64,000 nt of DNA from a phage: assembly GCA_004257845.1 (NCBI GenBank), contig GCA_004257845.1_4800.1. One strand, 5' to 3'. Made by a program: the position numbers and the translations under genes. Each line of letters opens with the position of its first letter. Positions within the stretch are counted from its first letter, which is position 1. Shown one piece after another: positions 5,598 through 16,071 of the stretch. The notes below the pieces were generated by a model. It searched no databases, was not told the DNA's origin, and saw nothing but the letters and a program-made list of their open reading frames with translations.

Positions 5598-6062
5598 ATG
5601 TCAAAATACATCGTTTCAACTATGTCTATGTCAGTAAACTACACCTTCTATACGGAAGTGAAAGAAAACCCGAATGCAAAAGCTGGTTCAGGCGCTCTTC
5701 CAAATATTCGCAAACAGATTCTAATCAAGGGCGGCGCTGGTCTTACTTCAGCAACTTCCGGCTTTGGTGAAATGGCAAAAGGCGCTGACGGTGCACCTTT
5801 GTGGACTCCTGAAGGAATCGTCACCGTTGTAAGCGATGCAGATTTTGAGCATCTGAAAGATCATCACGTATTTAAGCAGCATCTTGAAAAAGGTTTGGTG
5901 AAAGTCGTAAATCACGACATTGTTGGCAATCACAAAGCCGTCGCTAAAGAAGTTCGCGGCATGTCAGACGACCCGTTTGCGCCTATGACGCGCGAAACTG
6001 CTGACAAGCGCATCAAGGTGAAATTGAGCGGCGACCAAGAAGATGATTTATTCCGCGTTTAA
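5598..6062 (+). CDS. hypothetical virion protein
   Basis: ORF in same-strand morphogenesis array after capsid gene. Confidence 0.4.
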   Translation: MSKYIVSTMSMSVNYTFYTEVKENPNAKAGSGALPNIRKQILIKGGAGLTSATSGFGEMAKGADGAPLWTPEGIVTVVSDADFEHLKDHHVFKQHLEKGLVKVVNHDIVGNHKAVAKEVRGMSDDPFAPMTRETADKRIKVKLSGDQEDDLFRV

Positions 6063-6076
6063 ATAAGGTGAATGCC

Positions 6077-6532
6077 ATGTCATTAGATTACGAAAAGTTC
6101 AGAATTAAATTTCCACAGTTTGCTGATCAGGTTAAATTCCCTGACACAACACTTCAAGTATTCTATGACATGGCATGTGAATTTATTGAATCACAAGACA
6201 GTCCTTGTCGTGTTTTAAATGGCAGTAAATTGGAGCTGGCATTGGAATATATGACGGCTCATCTTTTATGCATAGCCGCAGACCAACAAGTGTCTGTGTC
6301 TTCTGGTGACGGAGTTGAACAAAGCGGCTTCGTGACTGGCGCAACAATTGGTGATATCACAGTGAACAAAGTCGCGCCGCCTGCAAGTGATGGTTGGGAA
6401 TACTGGCTTTCAAGCACTCCTTATGGCATGGCGCTGTGGGCGCTTCTTCAAGCACTGGCCGTTGGCGGCTTGTCATTCGGCGGTCTTCCAGAGCGTGAAG
6501 GATTCCGTAAAATTGGTGGGGTATTCTGGTGA
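6077..6532 (+). CDS. hypothetical head-tail joining region protein
   Basis: ATG at 6077 preceded by AAGGTGAA (track ORF begins at a GTG at 6068); stop overlaps next start. Confidence 0.4.
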   Translation: MSLDYEKFRIKFPQFADQVKFPDTTLQVFYDMACEFIESQDSPCRVLNGSKLELALEYMTAHLLCIAADQQVSVSSGDGVEQSGFVTGATIGDITVNKVAPPASDGWEYWLSSTPYGMALWALLQALAVGGLSFGGLPEREGFRKIGGVFW

Positions 6533-6915
6533 GGATTCCTGGCGTAAACTTATATCGAGTTGCGACAAAGGTTATCGGTCGCCAACCGATTCAATATTAC
6601 ATGTACAAGGGGCGCACCCTTGATAAGATGCGCAACTATGTCACTACATATGAAGAACCAATCACCTTACTTGCTTCGGTGCAGGCTGTACTTCGAAACC
6701 AATACGTTGAGCTTGGATTAGAGCTTCAAAAGAACTATGTCAAAATCTGGGTGGACAAAGACATTGTTGACCTTGACCGCGACGCTTCCGGCGACTATTT
6801 TGTGTTTGGTGGCAAAACGTACAAGATGGAAGATGAAACGACATGGTTTGACCAAGATGGTTGGACGTCTTGCCTTGCCGTGGAAGTAAAACAAAGCTTT
6901 CCAGTGTCTACTTGA
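6529..6915 (+). CDS. hypothetical head-tail joining region protein
   Basis: ORF with 4-nt start/stop overlap with neighbours. Confidence 0.4.
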   Translation: MRIPGVNLYRVATKVIGRQPIQYYMYKGRTLDKMRNYVTTYEEPITLLASVQAVLRNQYVELGLELQKNYVKIWVDKDIVDLDRDASGDYFVFGGKTYKMEDETTWFDQDGWTSCLAVEVKQSFPVST

Positions 6916-6916
6916 G

Positions 6917-7498
6917 GTGTATATGACAGATGTCGACCTGATTGACATGCTGGCAACGCGAATTGAAGAAGGTCTGGCGGCGTATAGTCGTGCAGACCTT
7001 TCTGCTGTTCCGGTCCAGAAAAAATACCAACCGACTCAACAGGGCATTCCGACTGGTGATCAGATTTGGTTTAACCTTTTATTCTCAGTTCCATTCGGTT
7101 GGTCGATGAGAAAGAATGAATTTGTCAATGATGAATCTCAATTCGTTAATGGCAAATTTAAAGATATTGAAGATCAGATATATGCAACACGTTTTCAAAT
7201 TAGCGGCTTATTTCCAGAAGTCCCTGGCAATCCAGAAAAGCCTACGGCTAATGACGTTTTGACTTATTTAGCAAGATTCATAACCCACAAGGCTAATTTG
7301 AGGGATTGGTTTAAAAGGCATCAAGCTTCAGTATATAGAGTCGACATGAACAACAATGAAAAGTTCTATGACGACATGTCTCAGTTCGAATCGTTTCCTT
7401 CTTTTGATTTGGTAATCCTTCACAGAAACGCAATTTCAATTGACACGCCTGCTGTTGCAAGAGCTGTTAATAATGATTTAGGCGATATTCCGGTGTGA
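6917..7498 (+). CDS. hypothetical neck/tail completion protein
   Basis: ORF in morphogenesis array; RBS-like GAGGTG before ATG. Confidence 0.4.
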   Translation: MYMTDVDLIDMLATRIEEGLAAYSRADLSAVPVQKKYQPTQQGIPTGDQIWFNLLFSVPFGWSMRKNEFVNDESQFVNGKFKDIEDQIYATRFQISGLFPEVPGNPEKPTANDVLTYLARFITHKANLRDWFKRHQASVYRVDMNNNEKFYDDMSQFESFPSFDLVILHRNAISIDTPAVARAVNNDLGDIPV

Positions 7499-7499
7499 T

Positions 7500-7985
7500 A
7501 TGACAAAATCAAAAATGATAGAAAAACAGATAAAGGCGCTTCAATCGATGAAGGGTCTTACTGTAGAGGCAGGATGGTTTGATTCTACCAGATACCCTTC
7601 AGAAACTGGTGGAGAAGGGATGTTGGTGTCAGAAGTCGCGCGACTTAATGAATTTGGTCACATAGCCGTTTTGAACTTTGGACAAGGTCCAGTCAGGGTA
7701 GAAGTGCCACCCAGACCATTCATGAGATATGCCTATGAATTATTCGTTAGTGAGCGCAGTGAAATAGAGAATAAAATTGCTAAAAAGATTTTTTCCGGTA
7801 AAATAGACGCTAGACAGGCATTAGGTCAGATTGGGCTTGCGATGGAAGCAAAGATTGTCGAATCAATTAAAAACGGACCTTGGCAAAGAAACGCCAGATA
7901 TACCGTGCGTGTGAAAGGATTCGACAAACCTTTAATTCACAGCAGCCTTATGTGGCAATCTGTCAACAGCCAAGTCATTAAATAA
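7500..7985 (+). CDS. hypothetical neck/tail completion protein
   Basis: ORF in morphogenesis array. Confidence 0.4.
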   Translation: MTKSKMIEKQIKALQSMKGLTVEAGWFDSTRYPSETGGEGMLVSEVARLNEFGHIAVLNFGQGPVRVEVPPRPFMRYAYELFVSERSEIENKIAKKIFSGKIDARQALGQIGLAMEAKIVESIKNGPWQRNARYTVRVKGFDKPLIHSSLMWQSVNSQVIK

Positions 7986-7997
7986 GAGGACACCGAC

Positions 7998-9536
7998 GTG
8001 ATCAGTCAATCTCGTTATATTAAAATTGTATCAGGGGTCGGAGCAGGCGCGGCTGTTGCAGTTCGCAAACTGTCGCTTCGCATCATGACTTCCAATACAG
8101 TTCTGCCGCCTGGCATTGTAGCAGAATTTTCAACTGCTGATGCCGTTGGATCATATTTCGGTTTTTCTTCCGAAGAATACAAGCGTGCAGCACTGTATTT
8201 CGGATTCATCAGCAAGCAAATCAACTCGCCTGATTCAATCAGCTTTTCTCGCGTTGTATCCACGGCGATTCCTGCAATGGTTATCGGCGACACTGAGCCT
8301 AAAACGCTTGCTACTTTCCAGGCATTCACTGGCGCTATCTTAAGCATCACTTATGACGGCACAGACTACCTGACTGACGCCATCAACCTTTCAGCGGCAA
8401 CAAGTCTTGCCAACGTAGCGGAACTTTTGGAAACGGCAATCAACACCAAGTTTGCAGCAGAAGGTGGCACGTCGGTGCCTGCACTTGCTGATGCAGAAGT
8501 GTATTGGAATGCCAACACCCAGCAGTTCACTTTGGAAGCCGCTCCGTCGACCGCTGGTGCTGGAAACCTTTCGATTAACGTCACAGGTCAACCGACAGAC
8601 CCATCTCAGGCGCTTGGTTGGACGACTACTGGCACCGTTACGGTTGCTGGACAGGGTGTAGCAAGTCCGGTAGAAGCCATCGCGGCATCTGTGGAGATTT
8701 CCAACAACTTTGGCTCATTCCTTTTCGCTGGAGCAGACCGAACGCTGGAAGAAATCACAGCCGTTGCAGCTTGGACTCACTCGCAGAACAACATGTACAT
8801 GTATCTGTTCTCGACTGCATTCGCCAACATCGGCTCATACTATACCGCGTTGAAAGGTTACTCAGGCGTTGGTATGATGATCCGTGCAACTAACCTCGCG
8901 AATGATTACATCGACCAGGCACCTGCTGAAATTCTTGCGGCGACAAACTATAACACTGTAAATGCAACTCAAAACTACATGTATTATCAGTTTGAAACGC
9001 GAAATGTAACCGTATCGACTGATTCACGCGCAGATACTGCTGATCAAAACCGTGCAAACTATATCGGTGCGACTCAGCAAGCTGGTCAAACTCTCGCGTT
9101 CTTCCAGCGTGGTGTTCTGATGGGCGGGTCTACCGCAGCAGTTGACATGAACACTTATGCCAACGAGATGTGGCTTAAATCTGCTATCACTTCTCAGCTG
9201 TTCAGCATGTTCTTGAATCTTGGTCGCGTGCCTGCAAACGAAGAAGGCAAAGCGACTGTCCAAGCCATGATTCAAGTTGCTGTTGACAATGCGAAGGTTA
9301 ACGGCACCATCTCTGTCGGTAAGGCGCTGACGGAAATTCAGAAACAGTACATCACGCAAACCTCCGGTGACAACACTGCTTGGCGGCAGGTTGAGACTAT
9401 CGGTTATTGGTTGACTGTCGATTTTGACACTGAAACCACTTCCGATAACCGCACCGAATACTATGCAACATACACGCTAATCTACTCTAAAGATGATGCT
9501 GTGCGTCGCGTTGAAGGTCGTGACGTTCTTATTTAA
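7998..9536 (+). CDS. tail sheath-like protein (putative)
   Basis: 512-aa ORF with GTG start preceded by AAGAGGA; directly upstream of a tube-like ~155-aa gene and separated from it by a GC hairpin, an arrangement typical of contractile tails; call by position and size only. Confidence 0.4.
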   Translation: MISQSRYIKIVSGVGAGAAVAVRKLSLRIMTSNTVLPPGIVAEFSTADAVGSYFGFSSEEYKRAALYFGFISKQINSPDSISFSRVVSTAIPAMVIGDTEPKTLATFQAFTGAILSITYDGTDYLTDAINLSAATSLANVAELLETAINTKFAAEGGTSVPALADAEVYWNANTQQFTLEAAPSTAGAGNLSINVTGQPTDPSQALGWTTTGTVTVAGQGVASPVEAIAASVEISNNFGSFLFAGADRTLEEITAVAAWTHSQNNMYMYLFSTAFANIGSYYTALKGYSGVGMMIRATNLANDYIDQAPAEILAATNYNTVNATQNYMYYQFETRNVTVSTDSRADTADQNRANYIGATQQAGQTLAFFQRGVLMGGSTAAVDMNTYANEMWLKSAITSQLFSMFLNLGRVPANEEGKATVQAMIQVAVDNAKVNGTISVGKALTEIQKQYITQTSGDNTAWRQVETIGYWLTVDFDTETTSDNRTEYYATYTLIYSKDDAVRRVEGRDVLI

Positions 9537-9542
9537 ATAATT

Positions 9543-9560
9543 GCCGCCGTAAATGGCGGC
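9543..9560 (+). terminator. stem-loop between sheath-like and tube-like genes
   Basis: GCCGCC (9543-9548) ... GGCGGC (9555-9560); no T-run. Confidence 0.3.
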
Positions 9561-9583
9561 CATCTCTCTGAGAGGAATCTGTA

Positions 9584-10051
9584 ATGATTAACGTTTCCGG
9601 TTTTGGCGCTTCGATTCGTTTGGTAGCATCAAACACTTTTCCGAATGGTGTGACTCTTTCTGATTTTGCAGATGATGCTGATCCGATTGACGCGCCGGAC
9701 CTGCAAATCTCTGAGGCTGCAATGGGCCTTAACGGTGACTTAGTAGTATGGAACCGTGCAAACCCGCTTGAAGTAGGTGTGAACATCATCCCTACTTCTG
9801 AAAGTGATGTCAACTTGGACGTTCTTGCAGCTGCAAACCGCGTAGGCAAGCGTAAGAACTCTGCAAAAGACGTGATCACACTTGTGCTGACTTATCCTTC
9901 TGGAATGGTTATCACGCTAAACAAAGGCACCTTGACAACTGGTTCAGTAATTCCTGGCATCCAGTCTCAAGGTCGTGTGAAAACACGCCAATATCGCTTC
10001 AAGTTTGAGAACGTAGTCAAAACTGGCGTGAGCAACCAAGAGATTTTATAA
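9584..10051 (+). CDS. tail tube-like protein
   Basis: 155 aa; strong RBS GAGAGGAA; paralogous to product of 11002-11499 (MINVSGFGASIRLVA... vs MVNISGFGTSIRIVA..., shared ITYP.G..., KTR/KTNRY motifs). Confidence 0.45.
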   Translation: MINVSGFGASIRLVASNTFPNGVTLSDFADDADPIDAPDLQISEAAMGLNGDLVVWNRANPLEVGVNIIPTSESDVNLDVLAAANRVGKRKNSAKDVITLVLTYPSGMVITLNKGTLTTGSVIPGIQSQGRVKTRQYRFKFENVVKTGVSNQEIL

Positions 10052-10380
10052 TGTATCAAATACCACTTGACAGCGTACCTAACCAGAATATCAGCTTTAA
10101 CGTTGACGGTGCATATTGGCAGTTGCACATTTTTGCTGCTATCGAGCACATGTGCGCCGACGTATACCGCAACGGTGAACTTTTGATTCAAGGGGTGCGC
10201 TGTTTTGGTGGTATCCCAATGGTGCCTTATAAGTATCTCATGATTGGGTACGGTAATTTCATTTTCGACAGCGTACCTGATTATGAAAGTTTTAACTCTG
10301 GCGGCTGTAATCTATATTACATGTCAGAATCTGAGTTGGCTGAATTCCAGGCAACTGCTGAAGCGGAGTTTGCAATTTGA
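10051..10380 (+). CDS. hypothetical tail protein
   Basis: ORF, start overlaps previous stop. Confidence 0.4.
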   Translation: MYQIPLDSVPNQNISFNVDGAYWQLHIFAAIEHMCADVYRNGELLIQGVRCFGGIPMVPYKYLMIGYGNFIFDSVPDYESFNSGGCNLYYMSESELAEFQATAEAEFAI

Positions 10381-10733
10381 CAACTCTAACAATTGAAGTT
10401 AACGAAAATAATGACCTTTTTCTGCCTGATGGAAGAAACTTAAATATTCTTTCAGGAGAAAAAGCGATGGTGCAAGTAATCAAGGCCGCGCACCAGATGC
10501 GACTTGGTGAAGACTTGTACGATATAGAAAACGGTGTCGATTATTTGGGGACCGTTTTCAAGTCGCCCGTTGACGAAGACGGTGCGCGAAAGTCGATTGC
10601 AGATGCTATTCTGAAGAAAGCAGACGTTGCCGGAATCGACTCATTGACTGTCACCATCCAAAACGGTATCCTTGGATTCACTGCAGAAGTGGTGACTATT
10701 TATGGCGAACGTATAAAGGTGAGTAATCAATAA
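10377..10733 (+). CDS. hypothetical tail protein
   Basis: ORF, 4-nt overlap with previous gene. Confidence 0.4.
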   Translation: MTTLTIEVNENNDLFLPDGRNLNILSGEKAMVQVIKAAHQMRLGEDLYDIENGVDYLGTVFKSPVDEDGARKSIADAILKKADVAGIDSLTVTIQNGILGFTAEVVTIYGERIKVSNQ

Positions 10734-10999
10734 TGGCACAAGTAATTCATTTTGCAAATGGCGTCATGAAATTTGGCGAAAAATTTGAAGACGCATCAGA
10801 GCTGTTTAATAAGAAGGTTGAGCCTGTTGCAGAAATCAAAGAGCAGGTCGAAGAAAAATCCGTTGAACAAAAACTAGATTTTGATTCCATGAGCGTTTCA
10901 GAATTGAAGTCTTATGCTAAAGAAAATGGCATTGACATCAAGGGTCTTTCTTATAAGGATGAAATTCTTGCTGCAGTTAAATCTGCATCTGCGGAGTAA
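10733..10999 (+). CDS. hypothetical protein
   Basis: ORF, overlapping start/stop. Confidence 0.4.
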   Translation: MAQVIHFANGVMKFGEKFEDASELFNKKVEPVAEIKEQVEEKSVEQKLDFDSMSVSELKSYAKENGIDIKGLSYKDEILAAVKSASAE

Positions 11000-11001
11000 A
11001 C

Positions 11002-11499
11002 ATGGTCAATATTAGTGGATTTGGCACAAGCATTAGAATTGTCGCTCTTCAATCTTTTCCTGTTGGGCTGAATATCAGTTCTTTGTCTGATGACCAGGAT
11101 TCGCTAATTATTGAGGAAGTTGAATCAGTAGGTTATCAACTTACTTACGACGGCGGCATTTGCATATACGACAAAGCCGCCGTCGTTCGCGTATCCATTG
11201 CGGTCATTCCAAACACTGAAGACGACATAAATCTTAAGCTTTTATTATCTGCCCGTAAAGGTGGATTCAAGTGGTTGCCAATTCAGGATGTGACATCGAT
11301 GCTCATTACATATCCTGACGGTGGAAGGGTGGCATTCTCTAACGGAACGATAATCAGCGGTCCGCTTGGTGACTCCATAGAGCAATCAGGCCGTCGCAAG
11401 ACAAACCGATACACATTTGTGTTTGCCAGCTACGGTGGCGCACAGAGCACGTCTCAAATTGCCAAGGGCGTGGTGCAGAGCATATTGGGGTCCATTTAA
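11002..11499 (+). CDS. tail tube-like protein, second paralog
   Basis: 165 aa; clear sequence similarity to product of 9584-10051. Confidence 0.45.
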   Translation: MVNISGFGTSIRIVALQSFPVGLNISSLSDDQDSLIIEEVESVGYQLTYDGGICIYDKAAVVRVSIAVIPNTEDDINLKLLLSARKGGFKWLPIQDVTSMLITYPDGGRVAFSNGTIISGPLGDSIEQSGRRKTNRYTFVFASYGGAQSTSQIAKGVVQSILGSI

Positions 11500-12032
11500 T
11501 GGCTATCGATTTACTGTCATATAGTCTATCAAACAGAAGCTTCACGATAAAGAGCTTCAACCTTGGAGAAGTATCCACGCTTGGATGGGCCATAGTCAAC
11601 GTCAAAATAAGACTCCAAGCGAAGATATTCAAAAACCAAAGGGAAGACGGCAGCTATATTGTCGATGGCAGAGTAAAGATGCCGCGAATACTCACTGTCA
11701 CCGTGATAGCTCAGACGAAAAGCGCATCAGATGCAATAGCTAAGATGTTGCAAAACAGGTCGACTATATACACAATTAATTCCCGTGGTCTAATATTCGA
11801 ACGTATGGTGCTGCAAAATAACAACTTCAGCCAGGACGCTGACAATATAACGTCTCAGCCCATACAATTGGTCTTCCATGAGATATTAACACAGCAGGAT
11901 GTGTCTATTCAAACAGCGCAGGCAGGCGACTCAACAGTAATAGAGCGCGGCATTGCATACATAAAAGAAACTTCTGCCAGCGTCACTGGCGTCGCTACAA
12001 AGGTGATGAATGGTATCAAGGGGATGTTCTGA
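11499..12032 (+). CDS. hypothetical tail protein
   Basis: ORF, start overlaps previous stop. Confidence 0.4.
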   Translation: MAIDLLSYSLSNRSFTIKSFNLGEVSTLGWAIVNVKIRLQAKIFKNQREDGSYIVDGRVKMPRILTVTVIAQTKSASDAIAKMLQNRSTIYTINSRGLIFERMVLQNNNFSQDADNITSQPIQLVFHEILTQQDVSIQTAQAGDSTVIERGIAYIKETSASVTGVATKVMNGIKGMF

Positions 12033-12592
12033 TGGACTTCGTTTCGATTCTGCTTTCTGGTCAATCTTTGACCATAACGAATGAGTCAACAGGTCTTCCT
12101 GTCTGGACAAGGCTTTCACCTGTTTCTGCAGAAATAACATCCCCAGCAGAAACAACTCAATTCCCTCTTGCTGGTACAGCCATGCAGGTTGTCGAAGTAT
12201 CAAGCACGTCATCAGTAAGCAATTTACAGGCGGCAAAGGTTGTAATGCCAGCCCATATGGCGTTAAACGTAATTTGCAATGACCAGTCTACAATTGAAAA
12301 TATCATAAATTCATTTGATGATGACGAAGTCACATTTTCAATAACTTCTCGAAGCATCATTGCCAGTAAAATGTCGATGTCCGACGTTGAAATAACCCAG
12401 TCAGAAGAAAACTTGAATGGAGTCTCAATAGTAATAACTTTCGAGCAAACGTCATTTAGCATTCAAGGAAGCTTCGACCCTAAACAATCTGCAGACGAAT
12501 CATCAAATGGTGTTGCCATTAAAGAACCAGTCAGTTTGACTACAACTGTGAGTTCGTTATATAATAAAATAAAATCAACAGTAGGAATATAA
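12032..12592 (+). CDS. hypothetical tail protein
   Basis: ORF, start overlaps previous stop. Confidence 0.4.
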   Translation: MDFVSILLSGQSLTITNESTGLPVWTRLSPVSAEITSPAETTQFPLAGTAMQVVEVSSTSSVSNLQAAKVVMPAHMALNVICNDQSTIENIINSFDDDEVTFSITSRSIIASKMSMSDVEITQSEENLNGVSIVITFEQTSFSIQGSFDPKQSADESSNGVAIKEPVSLTTTVSSLYNKIKSTVGI

Positions 12593-12593
12593 A

Positions 12594-13010
12594 ATGAAGA
12601 TCACCAACAAACAAACTGGTCGTACAGTAGAAATTAAAATCAGCAAAATGACTGCGATGGAAGGCTGGAATATTCAGCGTCGATTCGTAGAATTTGCAAT
12701 GTCGAAAGACCCTGCTTTTCGTTCAGAGTATACGATGGAAGTGTTGGGCTTTGCAAAAGTCGAGCTTGACGTGGGACAAGAAATCCCATTAAGCACTGGT
12801 GCACTAATTGACAACCATCTTGGTGACTGGGAAAACCTTAAAGAAGTATTTGAAGCAGTTCTCATGGAGAACGGTATAAACCCAGACACCCACGCCGAGC
12901 GTGAAGGCTACTGGGAACAAGCTGGCGGCGAAATGGCTGCAGCATTCATCGGCGAATCGATGCGATTAATCGCGCCATTCCTCAGCGGCGAGACTCCAAA
13001 CAAGGGGTAA
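12594..13010 (+). CDS. hypothetical protein (tail assembly chaperone position)
   Basis: ORF immediately upstream of tape measure gene. Confidence 0.35.
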   Translation: MKITNKQTGRTVEIKISKMTAMEGWNIQRRFVEFAMSKDPAFRSEYTMEVLGFAKVELDVGQEIPLSTGALIDNHLGDWENLKEVFEAVLMENGINPDTHAEREGYWEQAGGEMAAAFIGESMRLIAPFLSGETPNKG

Positions 13011-13013
13011 ACT

Positions 13014-15194
13014 GTGTCTGACTCATTAGAAAAATTTGTGCTTCAATATACGGTGGACTTGAAAGAGTCCATCAATCGTCTTGAGCAATTGCAAGATAAG
13101 GTTGATCAGACAAACAAAAAGGCAAAATCCGCTGGCAAAGATTTCTCTGGAGCATTCAAAGATGTTTTTGGCGAGCTAAAGCCGCTTACTGGTGAGCTAG
13201 GGTCAATTGACGGAATACTTGCGCGGCTGACATATCGTTTTGCCGCGCTCGTTCCTGTTGTCGCAGGATTGGCCGTCGTCGTCAAATCCATCGTTGATGT
13301 TCGAAAAGAATACGAAGCGCAAAGAAAGCTTGGTTTTGAAGCCGGACTCTCTCCAATGGGTGTCGAACAACTACAACGACAGTTGAATGAAAGTTCAGGT
13401 GGCATCCTTGGCGCACAGGGGTCGCGAGACTTAATCAGCAAAGCTTCTAATCTGGCATTCAATGCATACACCAACCCCGATGTGATGAACAAGGACAACT
13501 TGTTGTTGAACAAGATGGGGACAAGTCCTTTCAACAGTAACGGCGGCATCAAAGACACGAATCAGCTGCTTGATGAAATTGGAACAAAGCTGAGAAGTGT
13601 GAATGAGCAAACCGCTCGTGCTATTGGTGCCCTGGCAGGTTTTACCGCCGATGAAGTCCGCGCCCTTCGTGAGCGCAACCAGTCTGTGAAAGAAAGCACG
13701 CGCATAAGCGACGAAGAAACCGCGAAGCTGCAAAGACAGCAAGCTGCTCTTGAGACTATACGAAATAGTATGGGGCAAATTCAAGAAGATTGGCGGCGTA
13801 TTGAGTTGGTAATTGGTGAAAATGTCATGCCTGCATTCTCGACTCTTGTCAGCAAAACTGCTGATACAGTCGAAGGATTCCAGATGATGTTTCAGAGAAT
13901 GTCTGACGGATGGAGCGAATTTGTCGACAACTTCATCGCTGACTTGAAACATCCGTTCGACAAGCAGGCCGCTGTCAACGAACGTCACGAAAGAGCGGTT
14001 GACCGATGGATCACCCAAATGGCTGATGGCGATGTTAAACGCCAAAGGAATCAAGAACAGAACGCCGCTGAACAACGTTCTGCACAGGCTCTTTTTACTC
14101 GTGACATAAATCTTTTTTCAAGTGCTGTGTCAACCTTTGCTGGCGTGATTGATGAGCGTCAAGCTTGGGCGGCATGGGCAGGTGAAATCGGGCGCAGCGC
14201 AGGGCAATCCGCGATGCCTGGAACACCAGCATTGAATACTGGCGCGACCGTAGGGAATAATCTTGGGTCAGGGAATCCGACAGCATATGACTCAATATAT
14301 GAGGAAGCTTCAAAACGCTATGGCATACCTGTAGCAATGATGAAGGCTGTAACTGAAGTCGAATCTGGATTCAATCCAAATGCTGTGAGCGGAGCAGGCG
14401 CGACTGGTTTGATGCAAATCATGCCTTCTAACTTCAAGGGTCTTGGTATCACAGACGGCAACGACCCTAGACAAAACATTATGGGCGGCGCTCAACTGTT
14501 GAAAGAGTATTTAAACGCTGCCAACGGCGATTGGAATCTTGCGCTGACGATGTATCACGGTGGCTACGACCGCAGCGGCTGGGGCAAGAATACACGCGCT
14601 TATCCTGGAAAGGTCATGGCTGCTCTCGACCGACAATCCAATGGTGAGTATGCCACGGCAGCGCCGCAAGGTGCACCAGTTACTCCAGTACTTAGCGGTA
14701 GCGGAGCGGAAGCACCAAAGGGCCGTTATGCACCAGTACAAGGTCAATCGCGCCAAACGGTGCAATACAGGCAATTGCAAGAAGCCATTGCAGGATACCT
14801 GAACGTACCAGTTGAGCAGTTGATGCAGGGACAAGTCAACAAAGGTGATATTGACTTTGCTCAAACTTACCTTAAGCTCGGAACGCAAAGGGATTATATT
14901 AAAAATATGCAGCTGGCTTCAACTCCAGGTGTAAGACCGAACATTCAAGCCGAAGCGATGAAAAACGCTCGTCTTGCTGCATTCCAACTTGAAGCGTTCC
15001 AGAAATATGGCGGCGACCTTTCCGCGAATAGTCGACCTGGTGGGCGTGATATTACTATGGGTCAGAAAAACGTTGTCATCAACGTCAACGGCGCCCAAGA
15101 CCCACGCAGCACGGCATTCGAAACGAAACGGGTGCTTGAACAAGATGATATCAACGACATAAACAACCTTACTGCTACACCTTTGAAGTGGTGA
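13014..15194 (+). CDS. tail tape measure protein with lytic transglycosylase (SLT) domain
   Basis: 726 aa, GTG start after AAGGGG; coiled-coil-like N-terminal region; SLT motifs EVESGFNPNAVSGAGATGLMQIMP and MYHGGY (about nt 14300-14580). Confidence 0.7.
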   Translation: MSDSLEKFVLQYTVDLKESINRLEQLQDKVDQTNKKAKSAGKDFSGAFKDVFGELKPLTGELGSIDGILARLTYRFAALVPVVAGLAVVVKSIVDVRKEYEAQRKLGFEAGLSPMGVEQLQRQLNESSGGILGAQGSRDLISKASNLAFNAYTNPDVMNKDNLLLNKMGTSPFNSNGGIKDTNQLLDEIGTKLRSVNEQTARAIGALAGFTADEVRALRERNQSVKESTRISDEETAKLQRQQAALETIRNSMGQIQEDWRRIELVIGENVMPAFSTLVSKTADTVEGFQMMFQRMSDGWSEFVDNFIADLKHPFDKQAAVNERHERAVDRWITQMADGDVKRQRNQEQNAAEQRSAQALFTRDINLFSSAVSTFAGVIDERQAWAAWAGEIGRSAGQSAMPGTPALNTGATVGNNLGSGNPTAYDSIYEEASKRYGIPVAMMKAVTEVESGFNPNAVSGAGATGLMQIMPSNFKGLGITDGNDPRQNIMGGAQLLKEYLNAANGDWNLALTMYHGGYDRSGWGKNTRAYPGKVMAALDRQSNGEYATAAPQGAPVTPVLSGSGAEAPKGRYAPVQGQSRQTVQYRQLQEAIAGYLNVPVEQLMQGQVNKGDIDFAQTYLKLGTQRDYIKNMQLASTPGVRPNIQAEAMKNARLAAFQLEAFQKYGGDLSANSRPGGRDITMGQKNVVINVNGAQDPRSTAFETKRVLEQDDINDINNLTATPLKW

Positions 15195-15198
15195 TAAT

Positions 15199-16071
15199 TT
15201 GAAAAAGAGAATCCTTAAAGTCACCTTATCTATGCCGGATGGCACAAGCCAAGTGCTTGATGAAGGATTGATGCTCAGATGCCGAATCAAAAAGGCAGCA
15301 CTTTCCGTGCAGAATAAGGCCACAATCGAAGTTGCAGGATTGACAGGGTACTTGAGAGAGTACCTGCTTTCCAACTTCACGGCATTCAACAAACGTCTGC
15401 GTGATCAAGGCCAGTTGGCGGAGAACTATGTCAACGTGACTATTGAAGCTGGGTACAGAGAGGGGAACGTAATCAGCAGCAACTTGGTATACAAGGGACA
15501 GGTGACGACTGTCGAGATAACAGCGCCGCCGCCGAACATCGTCATACGCATCACTTGCTACACCAACCAGATAAACAGGACTAAGTTTATCACTCAAGCT
15601 GCACCGTCAAACCCAACCTTCAAAGAGTTTGTGGAGTGGTCAGCAAAGCAAATGGATATTGATACTGTTATATGCGATACGTCGATTAACAATCAACGCC
15701 TTGTGAACCCAGGCCGAACAACATATGTTGCAGCTGCCTTGCTGCTTGAGATTCAGAACTATCAAAGGAACTCTATTGCGGCATATATTGATGATGATAC
15801 GCTAATCGTCAAGGATAAAGACAAAATTCTGAATCCAGAACAGATAACGGTGATTGAGGAATTTGTCGGAATACCGATGTGGAACGAGTGGGGCGCTGAC
15901 TTCACTTGCATGTATAACGCGGATTTGAAGCTTGCCCAAGGTGTGAAATTCAAATCAGTCTTAAACCCAAGCTTGAACGACACCACATTCGTCATCATGC
16001 AACTTGAATATGATTTAGCAAGTCGTGATGACATATTTACGGTGACGGGCGGCGTTGCACCATCGGCCTAA
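15199..16071 (+). CDS. distal tail / baseplate hub protein (putative)
   Basis: ORF directly after tape measure gene (TTG start in track); call by position. Confidence 0.35.
   Translation: MKKRILKVTLSMPDGTSQVLDEGLMLRCRIKKAALSVQNKATIEVAGLTGYLREYLLSNFTAFNKRLRDQGQLAENYVNVTIEAGYREGNVISSNLVYKGQVTTVEITAPPPNIVIRITCYTNQINRTKFITQAAPSNPTFKEFVEWSAKQMDIDTVICDTSINNQRLVNPGRTTYVAAALLLEIQNYQRNSIAAYIDDDTLIVKDKDKILNPEQITVIEEFVGIPMWNEWGADFTCMYNADLKLAQGVKFKSVLNPSLNDTTFVIMQLEYDLASRDDIFTVTGGVAPSA

Follow-up and report, generated by a model that had tools for sequence, protein, structure and literature searches.

The closest described counterparts of this locus come from the Pseudomonas Pbunaviruses. In phage E217 the tail tube is gp32, the "tail tube-B" is gp36 and gp41 is a trimeric hub of 287 residues (PDB 8fuv, 8env, and 8eon; Li et al., 2023, PMC10329688), and in phage Pa193 the tail tube is gp33 and the baseplate tube gp37 (PDB 9b42 and 9b45; PMC11456595). 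E217 gp36 and Pa193 gp37 each form a single ring of six subunits that shares the axis of the tube and stands on a ripcord heterohexamer and the trimeric hub (PMC10329688; PMC11456595), and the sheath initiator of Pa193 binds the C-terminus of gp37 (PMC11456595). The cyanophage Pam3 is a minimal myophage with the tube gp14 and the tube initiator gp17 (PMC9942802).

The window analyzed here, a stretch of 64,000 nucleotides, is 99.7% identical to NC_048195, which identifies it as Escherichia phage vB_EcoM_WFC, genus Wifcevirus. Judging by its genes, it is a contractile-tailed E. coli phage with a tail constructed like those of the Pseudomonas Pbunaviruses. Gene by gene, its neck and tail region is colinear with that of the Pbunaviruses, for which cryo-EM virions of E217 and Pa193 have been solved, and for 15 of the 16 successive genes from 5598 to 16071 the best BLASTP match was the gene of the same position in phage E215. 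Two of these genes encode related proteins, named A and B below. A is very probably the major tail tube protein and B its duplicate, forming a single starter ring in the baseplate. The genes from the sheath to the hub are as follows.

7998–9536, plus strand: tail sheath protein, directly upstream of A (PF11863/DUF3383, 398 bits; PHROG 205 tail sheath; 53% identity to E215 gp09).
9584–10051, plus strand: A, very probable major tail tube protein of 155 aa, ortholog of E217 gp32 and Pa193 gp33.
10051–10380, plus strand: baseplate adaptor of the Pam3 gp18 "plug" family, counterpart of the "helical bundle" E217 gp33/Pa193 gp34 (PF22479 Pam3_gp18, 2.5e-16; PDB 9b45_A, 1.1e-26; 8env_G, 2.4e-26).
10377–10733, plus strand: sheath initiator, counterpart of E217 gp34/Pa193 gp35 (PDB 9b45_G "gp35 Sheath initiator," 6.1e-23; PHROG 120 baseplate wedge subunit; 44% identity to E215 gp12).
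10733–10999, plus strand: protein of 88 aa with a C-terminal SAP/HeH motif (PF02037 SAP, 7.1e-06; PHROG 10541, unknown function).
11002–11499, plus strand: B, very probable baseplate tube or "tail tube-B" of 165 aa, ortholog of E217 gp36 and Pa193 gp37.
11499–12032, plus strand: ripcord-1, tube-fold/Dit-like, counterpart of E217 gp37/Pa193 gp38 (PDB 9b45_S, 1.1e-20; PF22760; PF21821 Dit_like).
12032–12592, plus strand: ripcord-2, counterpart of E217 gp38/Pa193 gp39 (PDB 9b45_V, 1.3e-27; PF22760, 239.8 bits).
12594–13010, plus strand: probable tail assembly chaperone, a function read from its position just before the tape measure gene (53% identity to E215 gp17).
13014–15194, plus strand: tape measure protein with a lytic transglycosylase domain (PF01464 SLT, 2.8e-24; PHROG 2013 and tape-measure PHROGs; E215 gp18 by BLASTP, 1.1e-67).
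15199–16071, plus strand: tail hub, homolog of E217 gp41 and putatively a trimer under the ripcord ring (49% identity over 290 aa to E215 gp19, 287 aa).

The gene order just listed, from sheath to hub, is also that of E217, with which the phage also shares the PF22764 family. A and B are 54 and 52% identical to the E215 proteins, which are nearly identical to those of E217, and the A–B divergence is 31–33% in both phages. The systems differ in their host (P. aeruginosa for E217, E. coli here), in the tape measure protein (858 aa in E217/E215, 726 aa here) and in the small gene before tube-B, which in E215 is unrelated and encodes 143 aa; the SAP protein gave no BLASTP match to E215 gp13, its positional counterpart. 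Moreover, E217 and Pa193 were solved as virions, whereas Wifcevirus is described here from sequence and predicted models. The A start codon lies 48 nt past the stop codon of the sheath gene. As had been proposed, exactly three ORFs separate A from B, and the RefSeq record of vB_EcoM_WFC also places three genes there, the middle one with a shorter start. A scan of 7400–13200 did not suggest that B is transcribed as a unit of its own, with 14 promoter-like sites (10.4 ± 3.0 in shuffles) and eight terminator-like sites (4.9 ± 2.2), both near chance. Within 12594–13010, no ORF of 40 aa or more that might encode a frameshifted chaperone product starts in another frame of the plus strand. Ripcord-2 is a distant paralog of ripcord-1 (21% identity, E 2e-4), and the ripcords have C-terminal arms by which the plug would be held.

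The earlier note on this DNA had regarded the products of 9584–10051 and 11002–11499 as homologous, and the pairwise alignment bore this out: BLASTP aligned them without gaps over 143 positions, 47 of them identical (33%), with 61% positives and an E value of 2e-32. The Smith–Waterman score was 251, against 30.8 ± 5.0 (maximum 54) in 1000 shuffles (z = 44). The N-termini that it quoted, MINVSGFGASIRLVA and MVNISGFGTSIRIVA, and the motif pair KTRQYRF in A and KTNRYTF in B were correct, but only the TYP.G part of its motif ITYP.G is common to both proteins, A reading LTYPSG and B ITYPDG. Both proteins match PF22764 (E217_Gp32) far above the cut-off of 27 bits, A with 203.8 bits (residues 2–144 on profile positions 1–143 of 144) and B with 180.4 bits (residues 3–144 on 2–143 of 144). 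At 22 positions the A and B families hold the same residue, each at least 90% conserved. This two-copy state is widely conserved, with 737 matching places in 380 phage records. A recent duplication or an assembly artefact is ruled out by the 33% identity together with the retention of both copies in about 375 genomes.

Additionally, each protein could be assigned to its own counterpart. Among PDB chains, A matched best 9b42_M, the "gp33 Tail tube" (E 1.4e-48; 2.5e-25 to the baseplate tube), and it is 54% identical to E215 gp10, against 39% to E215 gp14. A is placed in the tail-tube orthogroup by its reciprocal best match with the tube proteins and by the position of its gene right after the sheath. 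Its AlphaFold2 model (pLDDT 86.6) found the solved Pa193/E217 tube at the top of the Foldseek list, with TM scores of 0.91/0.94 to 9b42_M. B, conversely, matched 9b45_M, the "gp37 Baseplate tube" (1.1e-52), and 8env_I (2.2e-49) ahead of the tube (1.4e-21), and is 52% identical to E215 gp14. It is a reciprocal best match of the baseplate tubes and falls in a clade apart from the tube proteins, and an unrooted tree splits the B family from all A-type sequences with a bootstrap of 100/100; P0150, an outlier of 144 aa that the B search had turned up, groups loosely with the A-type sequences and was excluded from the family. The B model was of moderate confidence (pLDDT 72.3), with the C-terminal 15–20 residues poorly predicted, and its top Foldseek match was the Pa193/E217 baseplate tube (9b45_M, TM 0.68/0.74). 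Pa193 gp33 and gp37 were therefore the best matches of A and B, respectively, in both sequence and fold; Pa193 differs from this phage as E217 does, and its gp37 was built for residues 1–151 only. Next in both Foldseek lists came other myophage tubes, PVC/AFP tubes and Hcp. Both models agree with the tube beta-sandwich, a fold with an extended beta-hairpin and one long helix: they showed the expected strands and a helix at 73–85/87. Structure prediction and comparison with tube/Hcp-like folds, the check that had been suggested for the pair, returned a tail-tube (Hcp-like) fold for A and B alike.

B is set apart from A by a C-terminal extension past the tube core (165 against 155 aa), which aligns with gp37 through residue 162. 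G146, A147, and Q148 are near-invariant in the B family, and a C-terminal helix, lacking in A, is predicted with low confidence at 150–164. The gene lies downstream of the adaptor and sheath initiator and directly upstream of the ripcord pair. By analogy with the orthologs, which are 52–54% identical, six copies of B would form one hexameric ring, with the tube above it and the ripcord heterohexamer below, and A would assemble as stacked hexamers over the whole tail, with many copies per virion. Virion position, contacts and order of assembly would follow the same orthologs.

Duplicated tube-like proteins had been taken as a hint of a tube plus a tube-initiator. By position this is right, although B is better named a baseplate tube, the ring adjoining the first A ring; contact with that ring and the starting of polymerization would be functions held by analogy with its position in E217 and Pa193. 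In T4, gp19 is the tube, gp54 the tube initiator and gp48 the baseplate–tube cap, and two tube-fold layers, both homohexamers, lie between hub and tube. By position we take B to correspond to T4 gp54 and the ripcord ring to gp48, with the difference that the lower layer here would, by homology, be a 3+3 heterohexamer. A and B showed no detectable sequence relationship to the T4 proteins; in the Pfam scan (E ≤ 0.1) they matched PF22764 alone and no tube-initiator family, and the NCBIfam scan gave no family for either of them, the SAP protein or the chaperone. The simplest form of the initiator idea would make B the only tube initiator, in the narrow sense of Pam3 gp17 or T4 gp54, seated directly on the hub and leaving another role to the Dit-like pair. 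Its tube-like barrel with a C-terminal helix does loosely resemble Pam3 gp17, but in E217 and Pa193 the ripcord heterohexamer separates the B ortholog from the hub, and both ripcord orthologs are found here in unchanged order. Moreover, the single initiator gene of simpler relatives, located after the tape measure gene and beside the plug gene, is Dit-like and pairs with the ripcords; the Dit_like family that marks it matches both ripcords, but not B. The two ripcord genes just downstream appear to be closer equivalents of the Pam3-type initiator than B is, and a sole-initiator role for B is improbable.

Published mass spectrometry bears on the relative amounts of the two proteins, with the caution that the preparations held non-structural proteins as well and that protein scores are not quantitative. 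In vB_Eco4M-7, a 98%-identical phage with orthologs 98–100% identical, A and B were both detected, A far more strongly: vB_Eco4M-7_49 (A) gave six peptides, 52% coverage and a non-quantitative score of 283, and vB_Eco4M-7_53 (B) three peptides and a score, likewise non-quantitative, of only 4.5. The ortholog of the SAP protein, vB_Eco4M-7_52, was strongly detected. Of the two, only A was detected in ECML-117. The weak signal of B fits a single ring, within what a non-quantitative score can say. B might instead be a second polymerizing subunit of a mixed or segmented A/B tube, a reading with the same fold and the 22 common conserved core positions in its favor, and with precedent in solved phage tubes that hold several tube paralogs, such as that of cyanophage A-1(L) (8kee), of which the fold search returned several distinct chains. 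Yet the 52%-identical orthologs form exactly one baseplate ring in two independently solved virions, the signal of the B ortholog is very weak next to that of A, and B carries its family-specific extension, so that a mixed polymer is very unlikely. That A and B are tail fiber proteins, as the names in RefSeq, PF22764, and PHROG 2420 have it, deserves practically no credence, for it has database labels alone on its side, while the family founder E217 gp32 was solved as a tail tube, the models are compact tube beta-sandwiches of 150–165 aa whose fold searches give tube-fold proteins and no fibers, and the real Wifcevirus fibers have been published at other genome positions; the name is a legacy misnomer.

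Assembly on a single ring of B would proceed as follows. B would be an old duplicate of A that has lost the ability to polymerize and now makes only the baseplate tube ring. Its upper face would mimic a tube ring, where the first A ring docks and polymerizes, and further hexameric rings of A would pile up around the tape measure protein to give the tube within the sheath. With a tail of 107–120 nm and about 3.8 nm per ring, some 28–31 rings of A, or about 170–190 copies, would be expected. The lower face of B would bind a pseudo-hexamer of three ripcord-1/ripcord-2 heterodimers (11499–12592), which would lower the symmetry from six-fold to that of the trimeric hub (15199–16071) and the tail tip. 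Details of this interface may differ from those of the Pbunaviruses, because the ripcords are only 30–33% identical to their counterparts there. The extra C-terminal segment of B (about residues 144–165) probably points outward and grips the sheath initiator (10377–10733), as reported for Pa193 gp37. On contraction, the ripcords, the hub and B would all remain at the tube tip, and the wedge "nut" would move up with the sheath.

With respect to the origin of the pair, relatives of about 40 kb (Bordetella phage IFTN1 and the metagenomic contig L004) and Pam3 are informative. A tube-fold ring starts the tube on a trimeric hub in these phages too, and they have the plug (Pam3_gp18 family) and sheath initiator in common with Wifcevirus; identity between the Pam3 tube and A is only 14%. 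In the 40-kb relatives, which share their head, neck, sheath, tube, plug, and hub families with Wifcevirus, each genome has one tube-family ORF, a single Dit-like initiator gene comes after the tape measure gene, and a homolog of the chaperone is encoded between tube and tape measure. Wifcevirus and Pbunavirus differ from the Pam3-like phages in the extra tube-derived ring (B), in an initiator split into ripcord-1 and ripcord-2, and in the block from adaptor to ripcords between the tube and chaperone genes. Because the simpler relatives carry one tube gene, the duplication may be lineage-specific. We tentatively suggest, with slightly less than even confidence, that B and the split ripcord pair are specific to Pbunavirus and Wifcevirus: two duplications, of the tube into tube-B and of one Dit-like initiator into ripcord-1 and ripcord-2, together with the movement of the plug and sheath-initiator genes between tube and chaperone, would have built a four-layer adaptor out of a minimal Pam3-like core of tube, one initiator and hub. 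The tree does not decide between a lineage-specific duplication and an older one with subsequent loss, since the B branch is long and attaches outside every A-type sequence, a position that agrees equally with an old duplication and with fast evolution after a later one. The Bordetella tube was placed within the A-type diversity, and when it was used as outgroup, an ill-posed rooting, the B clade had an uninformative bootstrap of 6/100. If the lineage-specific account is true, B as a tube-starter ring would have an origin separate from that of T4 gp54, namely in a duplicated copy of the major tube gene.

The duplicated genes do indicate the tail architecture, as had been supposed, but that architecture was already known for this phage group; the arrangement of tube and baseplate tube has been solved by cryo-EM in the related Pseudomonas phages and is nothing new in kind. 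The practical gain is the correction of a database label. In RefSeq and several GenBank Wifcevirus records the tube, the baseplate tube and both ripcords are labeled "tail fiber protein" or "hypothetical protein," and the names of PF22764 and PHROG 2420/2580 are of the same sort. Moving the names over from the solved Pbunavirus virions gives a full, correct tail and baseplate map for a genus of E. coli phages of interest for biocontrol and therapy, and keeps hunts for receptor-binding proteins away from the tube, baseplate tube and ripcord genes. Moreover, the contrast with relatives that have one tube gene would be a clear case of baseplate complexity rising through the duplication of tube-fold genes.

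The ORFs between 5598 and 16071 on the + strand run without a break, close-packed or overlapping. The two genes compared here, A and B, are separated by three small ORFs, and B is followed by two counterparts of the ripcord genes of Pa193 and E217, Pseudomonas phages (Pbunavirus) with virions solved by cryo-EM:

9584-10051, + strand: A, 155 aa
10051-10380, + strand: first small ORF, counterpart of the Pa193 gp34 "helical bundle" and E217 gp33 (solved-chain match), also matching Pfam Pam3_gp18 "plug"
10377-10733, + strand: second small ORF, sheath initiator counterpart (solved-chain match)
10733-10999, + strand: third small ORF, 88 aa
11002-11499, + strand: B, 165 aa
11499-12032, + strand: ripcord-1 counterpart (solved-chain match; PF22760 and Dit_like)
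12032-12592, + strand: ripcord-2 counterpart (solved-chain match; PF22760 and Dit_like)

A and B were aligned without gaps over 143 residues, with 33% identity and 61% similarity (E = 2e-32), and their Smith-Waterman score of 251 lay 44 standard deviations above 1000 shuffles (maximum 54). The homology proposed in the earlier note was thus confirmed, and the motifs quoted there were right except one, the common motif being TYP.G and not ITYP.G. The region 7998-13010 was 99.7% identical to Escherichia phage vB_EcoM_WFC (NC_048195, Wifcevirus) and 89-99% identical to 28 further Escherichia/Shigella phage records.

Both products belong to the Pfam family PF22764 "E217_Gp32" (204 bits for A, 180 bits for B, cut-off 27); the NCBIfam scan gave zero matches. 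Among the sequences of solved structures, A was closest to the Pa193 "gp33 Tail tube" (9b42_M, 1.4e-48) and also matched E217 gp32 (8fuv, 4.4e-42), with a far weaker match to the "baseplate tube" (2.5e-25). B was closest to the Pa193 "gp37 Baseplate tube" (9b45_M, 1.1e-52), matched E217 gp36 (8env_I) at 2.2e-49 and the tail tube at merely 1.4e-21. AlphaFold2 models built from alignments of 115 (A) and 30 (B) homologs reached pLDDT values of 86.6 and 72.3. In Foldseek searches of the PDB, the Pa193/E217 tube came top for A (TM 0.91/0.94, rmsd 1.7 Å) and the baseplate tube for B (TM 0.68/0.74), followed for both by other myophage tubes, PVC/AFP tubes and Hcp. On these matches A and B both have the tube fold; the unrelated folds that the earlier note had named as a refutation did not appear. 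In E217, gp36 ("tail tube-B") likewise resembles the tube gp32, with an RMSD of 3.6 Å (PMC10329688). In Wifcevirus, A and B correspond to E217 gp32/gp36 and Pa193 gp33/gp37, and every testable feature of the Pbunavirus tube and baseplate-tube families was found in them.

The gene neighbourhood was compared with that of E215, a Pbunavirus closely related to E217. For 15 of 16 consecutive ORFs the best E215 match was the gene in the same position (29-54% identity), 10733-10999 being the sole one without a counterpart. The product of this ORF, which lies within the baseplate gene block, carries a C-terminal SAP/HeH-like motif (PF02037 at 7e-6), belongs to PHROG 10541 (unknown function) and does not resemble the 143-aa gene that Pbunavirus has in this position. 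The two ripcord genes directly after B are likewise paralogs, but have diverged far more from each other (21% identity, E 2e-4). The RefSeq start of the sheath-initiator gene (NC_048195 gp037, 88 aa, at 8470-8736 of that region) is probably too far downstream, because the full 118-aa product, read from the TTG codon at 10377, matches Pa193 gp35 (1-111) from its first residue onward and the vB_Eco4M-7 annotation is the long form (357 nt). The tape measure gene (13014-15194), whose product has an internal SLT lytic transglycosylase domain (residues 430-529), is preceded by a single chaperone-like ORF (12594-13010); no ORF of 40 aa or more overlaps it in an alternative frame, and therefore the usual G/GT-type frameshift product is not evident.

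A GC-rich hairpin, GCCGCC-gtaaat-GGCGGC, was observed at 9543-9560, downstream of the stop codon of the sheath gene and ahead of the ribosome-binding site of the tube gene (folded region -16.6 kcal/mol, z = -2.5). E215 also carries a hairpin at the corresponding place (7383-7407 of its region), with another sequence, TTGCGGCGG-actcgat-CCGCCGCAA. Conservation of position and not of sequence points to an element that either stabilises the mRNA or acts as an attenuator between the two most abundant tail genes. Promoter and terminator scans gave counts near chance level.

In E217, gp36 forms one hexameric ring, collinear with the tube, to which three gp37/gp38 heterodimers attach; these bring the symmetry down to that of gp41, the trimeric hub, and of the tip, gp43, and the tube tip still carries gp36, gp37/38 and gp41 once the tail has contracted (PMC10329688). 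The Pa193 paper agrees with this arrangement, names gp37 the "baseplate tube" and describes the sheath initiator as binding gp37 and gp38 at their C-termini, which point outward (PMC11456595). The ripcords of both phages form a 3+3 heterohexamer, an adapter from 6-fold to 3-fold symmetry (PMC10329688, PMC11456595). As in Pa193 gp37, the C-terminus of B is extended; it contains G146-A147-Q148, nearly invariant across the B family, and a helix predicted at 150-164 in the AlphaFold2 model, both absent from A. By homology, assembly would likely start from hub plus tip, onto which the ripcord ring and then the B hexamer would be added, with A probably polymerising last around the tape measure protein. 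Sheath growth would begin at the sheath initiator, itself held by B and the ripcords.

The earlier note had suggested a tube plus tube-initiator pair. By position, and by analogy with these phages, B would indeed be the ring contacting the first tube ring, but it is not a member of the sequence family of either the cyanophage Pam3 initiator gp17 or T4 gp54. The closer equivalents of a Pam3-type initiator, whose C-terminal arms hold the plug, appear to be the Dit-like ripcords. The Pam3 tube measures 84 nm for 22 rings (PMC9942802); with the same rise of ~38 Å per ring, a Wifcevirus tail, which is 107-120 nm long, would hold roughly 28-31 A rings; this corresponds to 170-190 copies of A, compared with 6 of B.

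Published mass spectrometry was available for vB_Eco4M-7, 98.3% identical across this region, to which locus tags were mapped. The A ortholog (vB_Eco4M-7_49, 16.5 kDa) gave 6 peptides, 52% coverage and a score of 283, and the B ortholog (vB_Eco4M-7_53, 17.6 kDa) 3 peptides and a score of 4.5. ECML-117 has a 100% identical B protein; there A was seen and B was not detected. These data fit a major and a minor component, although the scores are not quantitative and non-structural proteins were also present in the preparations. Additionally, the ortholog of 10733-10999 (vB_Eco4M-7_52, 9.8 kDa) gave 10 peptides, 65% coverage and a score of 2929, among the highest of the preparation, so the 88-aa SAP protein may be abundant, either as a virion-associated or as a late protein.

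The A/B pair is real and its interpretation is supported, and the tail architecture was already known, since the BASEL-collection paper already reports that Wifcevirus structural genes had been annotated through their homologs in the Pbunavirus cryo-EM structure. The practical gain is the correction of labels: A, B and both genes after B are named "tail fiber protein" in RefSeq (NC_048195 gp035, gp039, gp040, gp041). This naming error is systematic in RefSeq/GenBank products for tube-fold baseplate and tube proteins, and the same misnomer occurs in PF22764 ('Tail fiber protein gp32') and in PHROG 2420 and PHROG 2580 ('tail fiber protein').

A tblastn search with B found 737 places in 380 phage records, with two copies in nearly all Pbunavirus, Wifcevirus, BcepF1-like, Serratia, Pantoea, Xanthomonas and Vibrio relatives. 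Neighbour-joining of 72 sequences placed the B family apart from all A-type proteins in 100/100 bootstraps, and mean identity was ~59% inside each family and 33% between them; the A/B duplication is accordingly older than the Wifcevirus-Pbunavirus split. Two relatives of ~40 kb, Bordetella phage vB_BaM-IFTN1 and the metagenomic contig JAZHCI011334125.1 (42 kb), have the E217-type capsid, neck, sheath, tube, plug and hub families in common with these phages, as well as the sheath-initiator family. In both, just one ORF is recognised by the A or the B family HMM, and the tail genes are arranged minimally, as in Pam3: the sheath gene and the only tube gene are followed by the chaperone and tape measure genes, a lone Dit-like gene, and then plug, hub, spike, sheath initiator and wedge. 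In Wifcevirus and Pbunavirus, by comparison, a block of six genes lies between those for the tube and the chaperone, and it contains the duplicate B and two Dit-like genes. With B on a long branch outside every A-type sequence in the tree, this difference may be a gain in the larger phages or a loss in the smaller ones. The two smaller relatives are a natural comparison set for the origin of the larger baseplate core.
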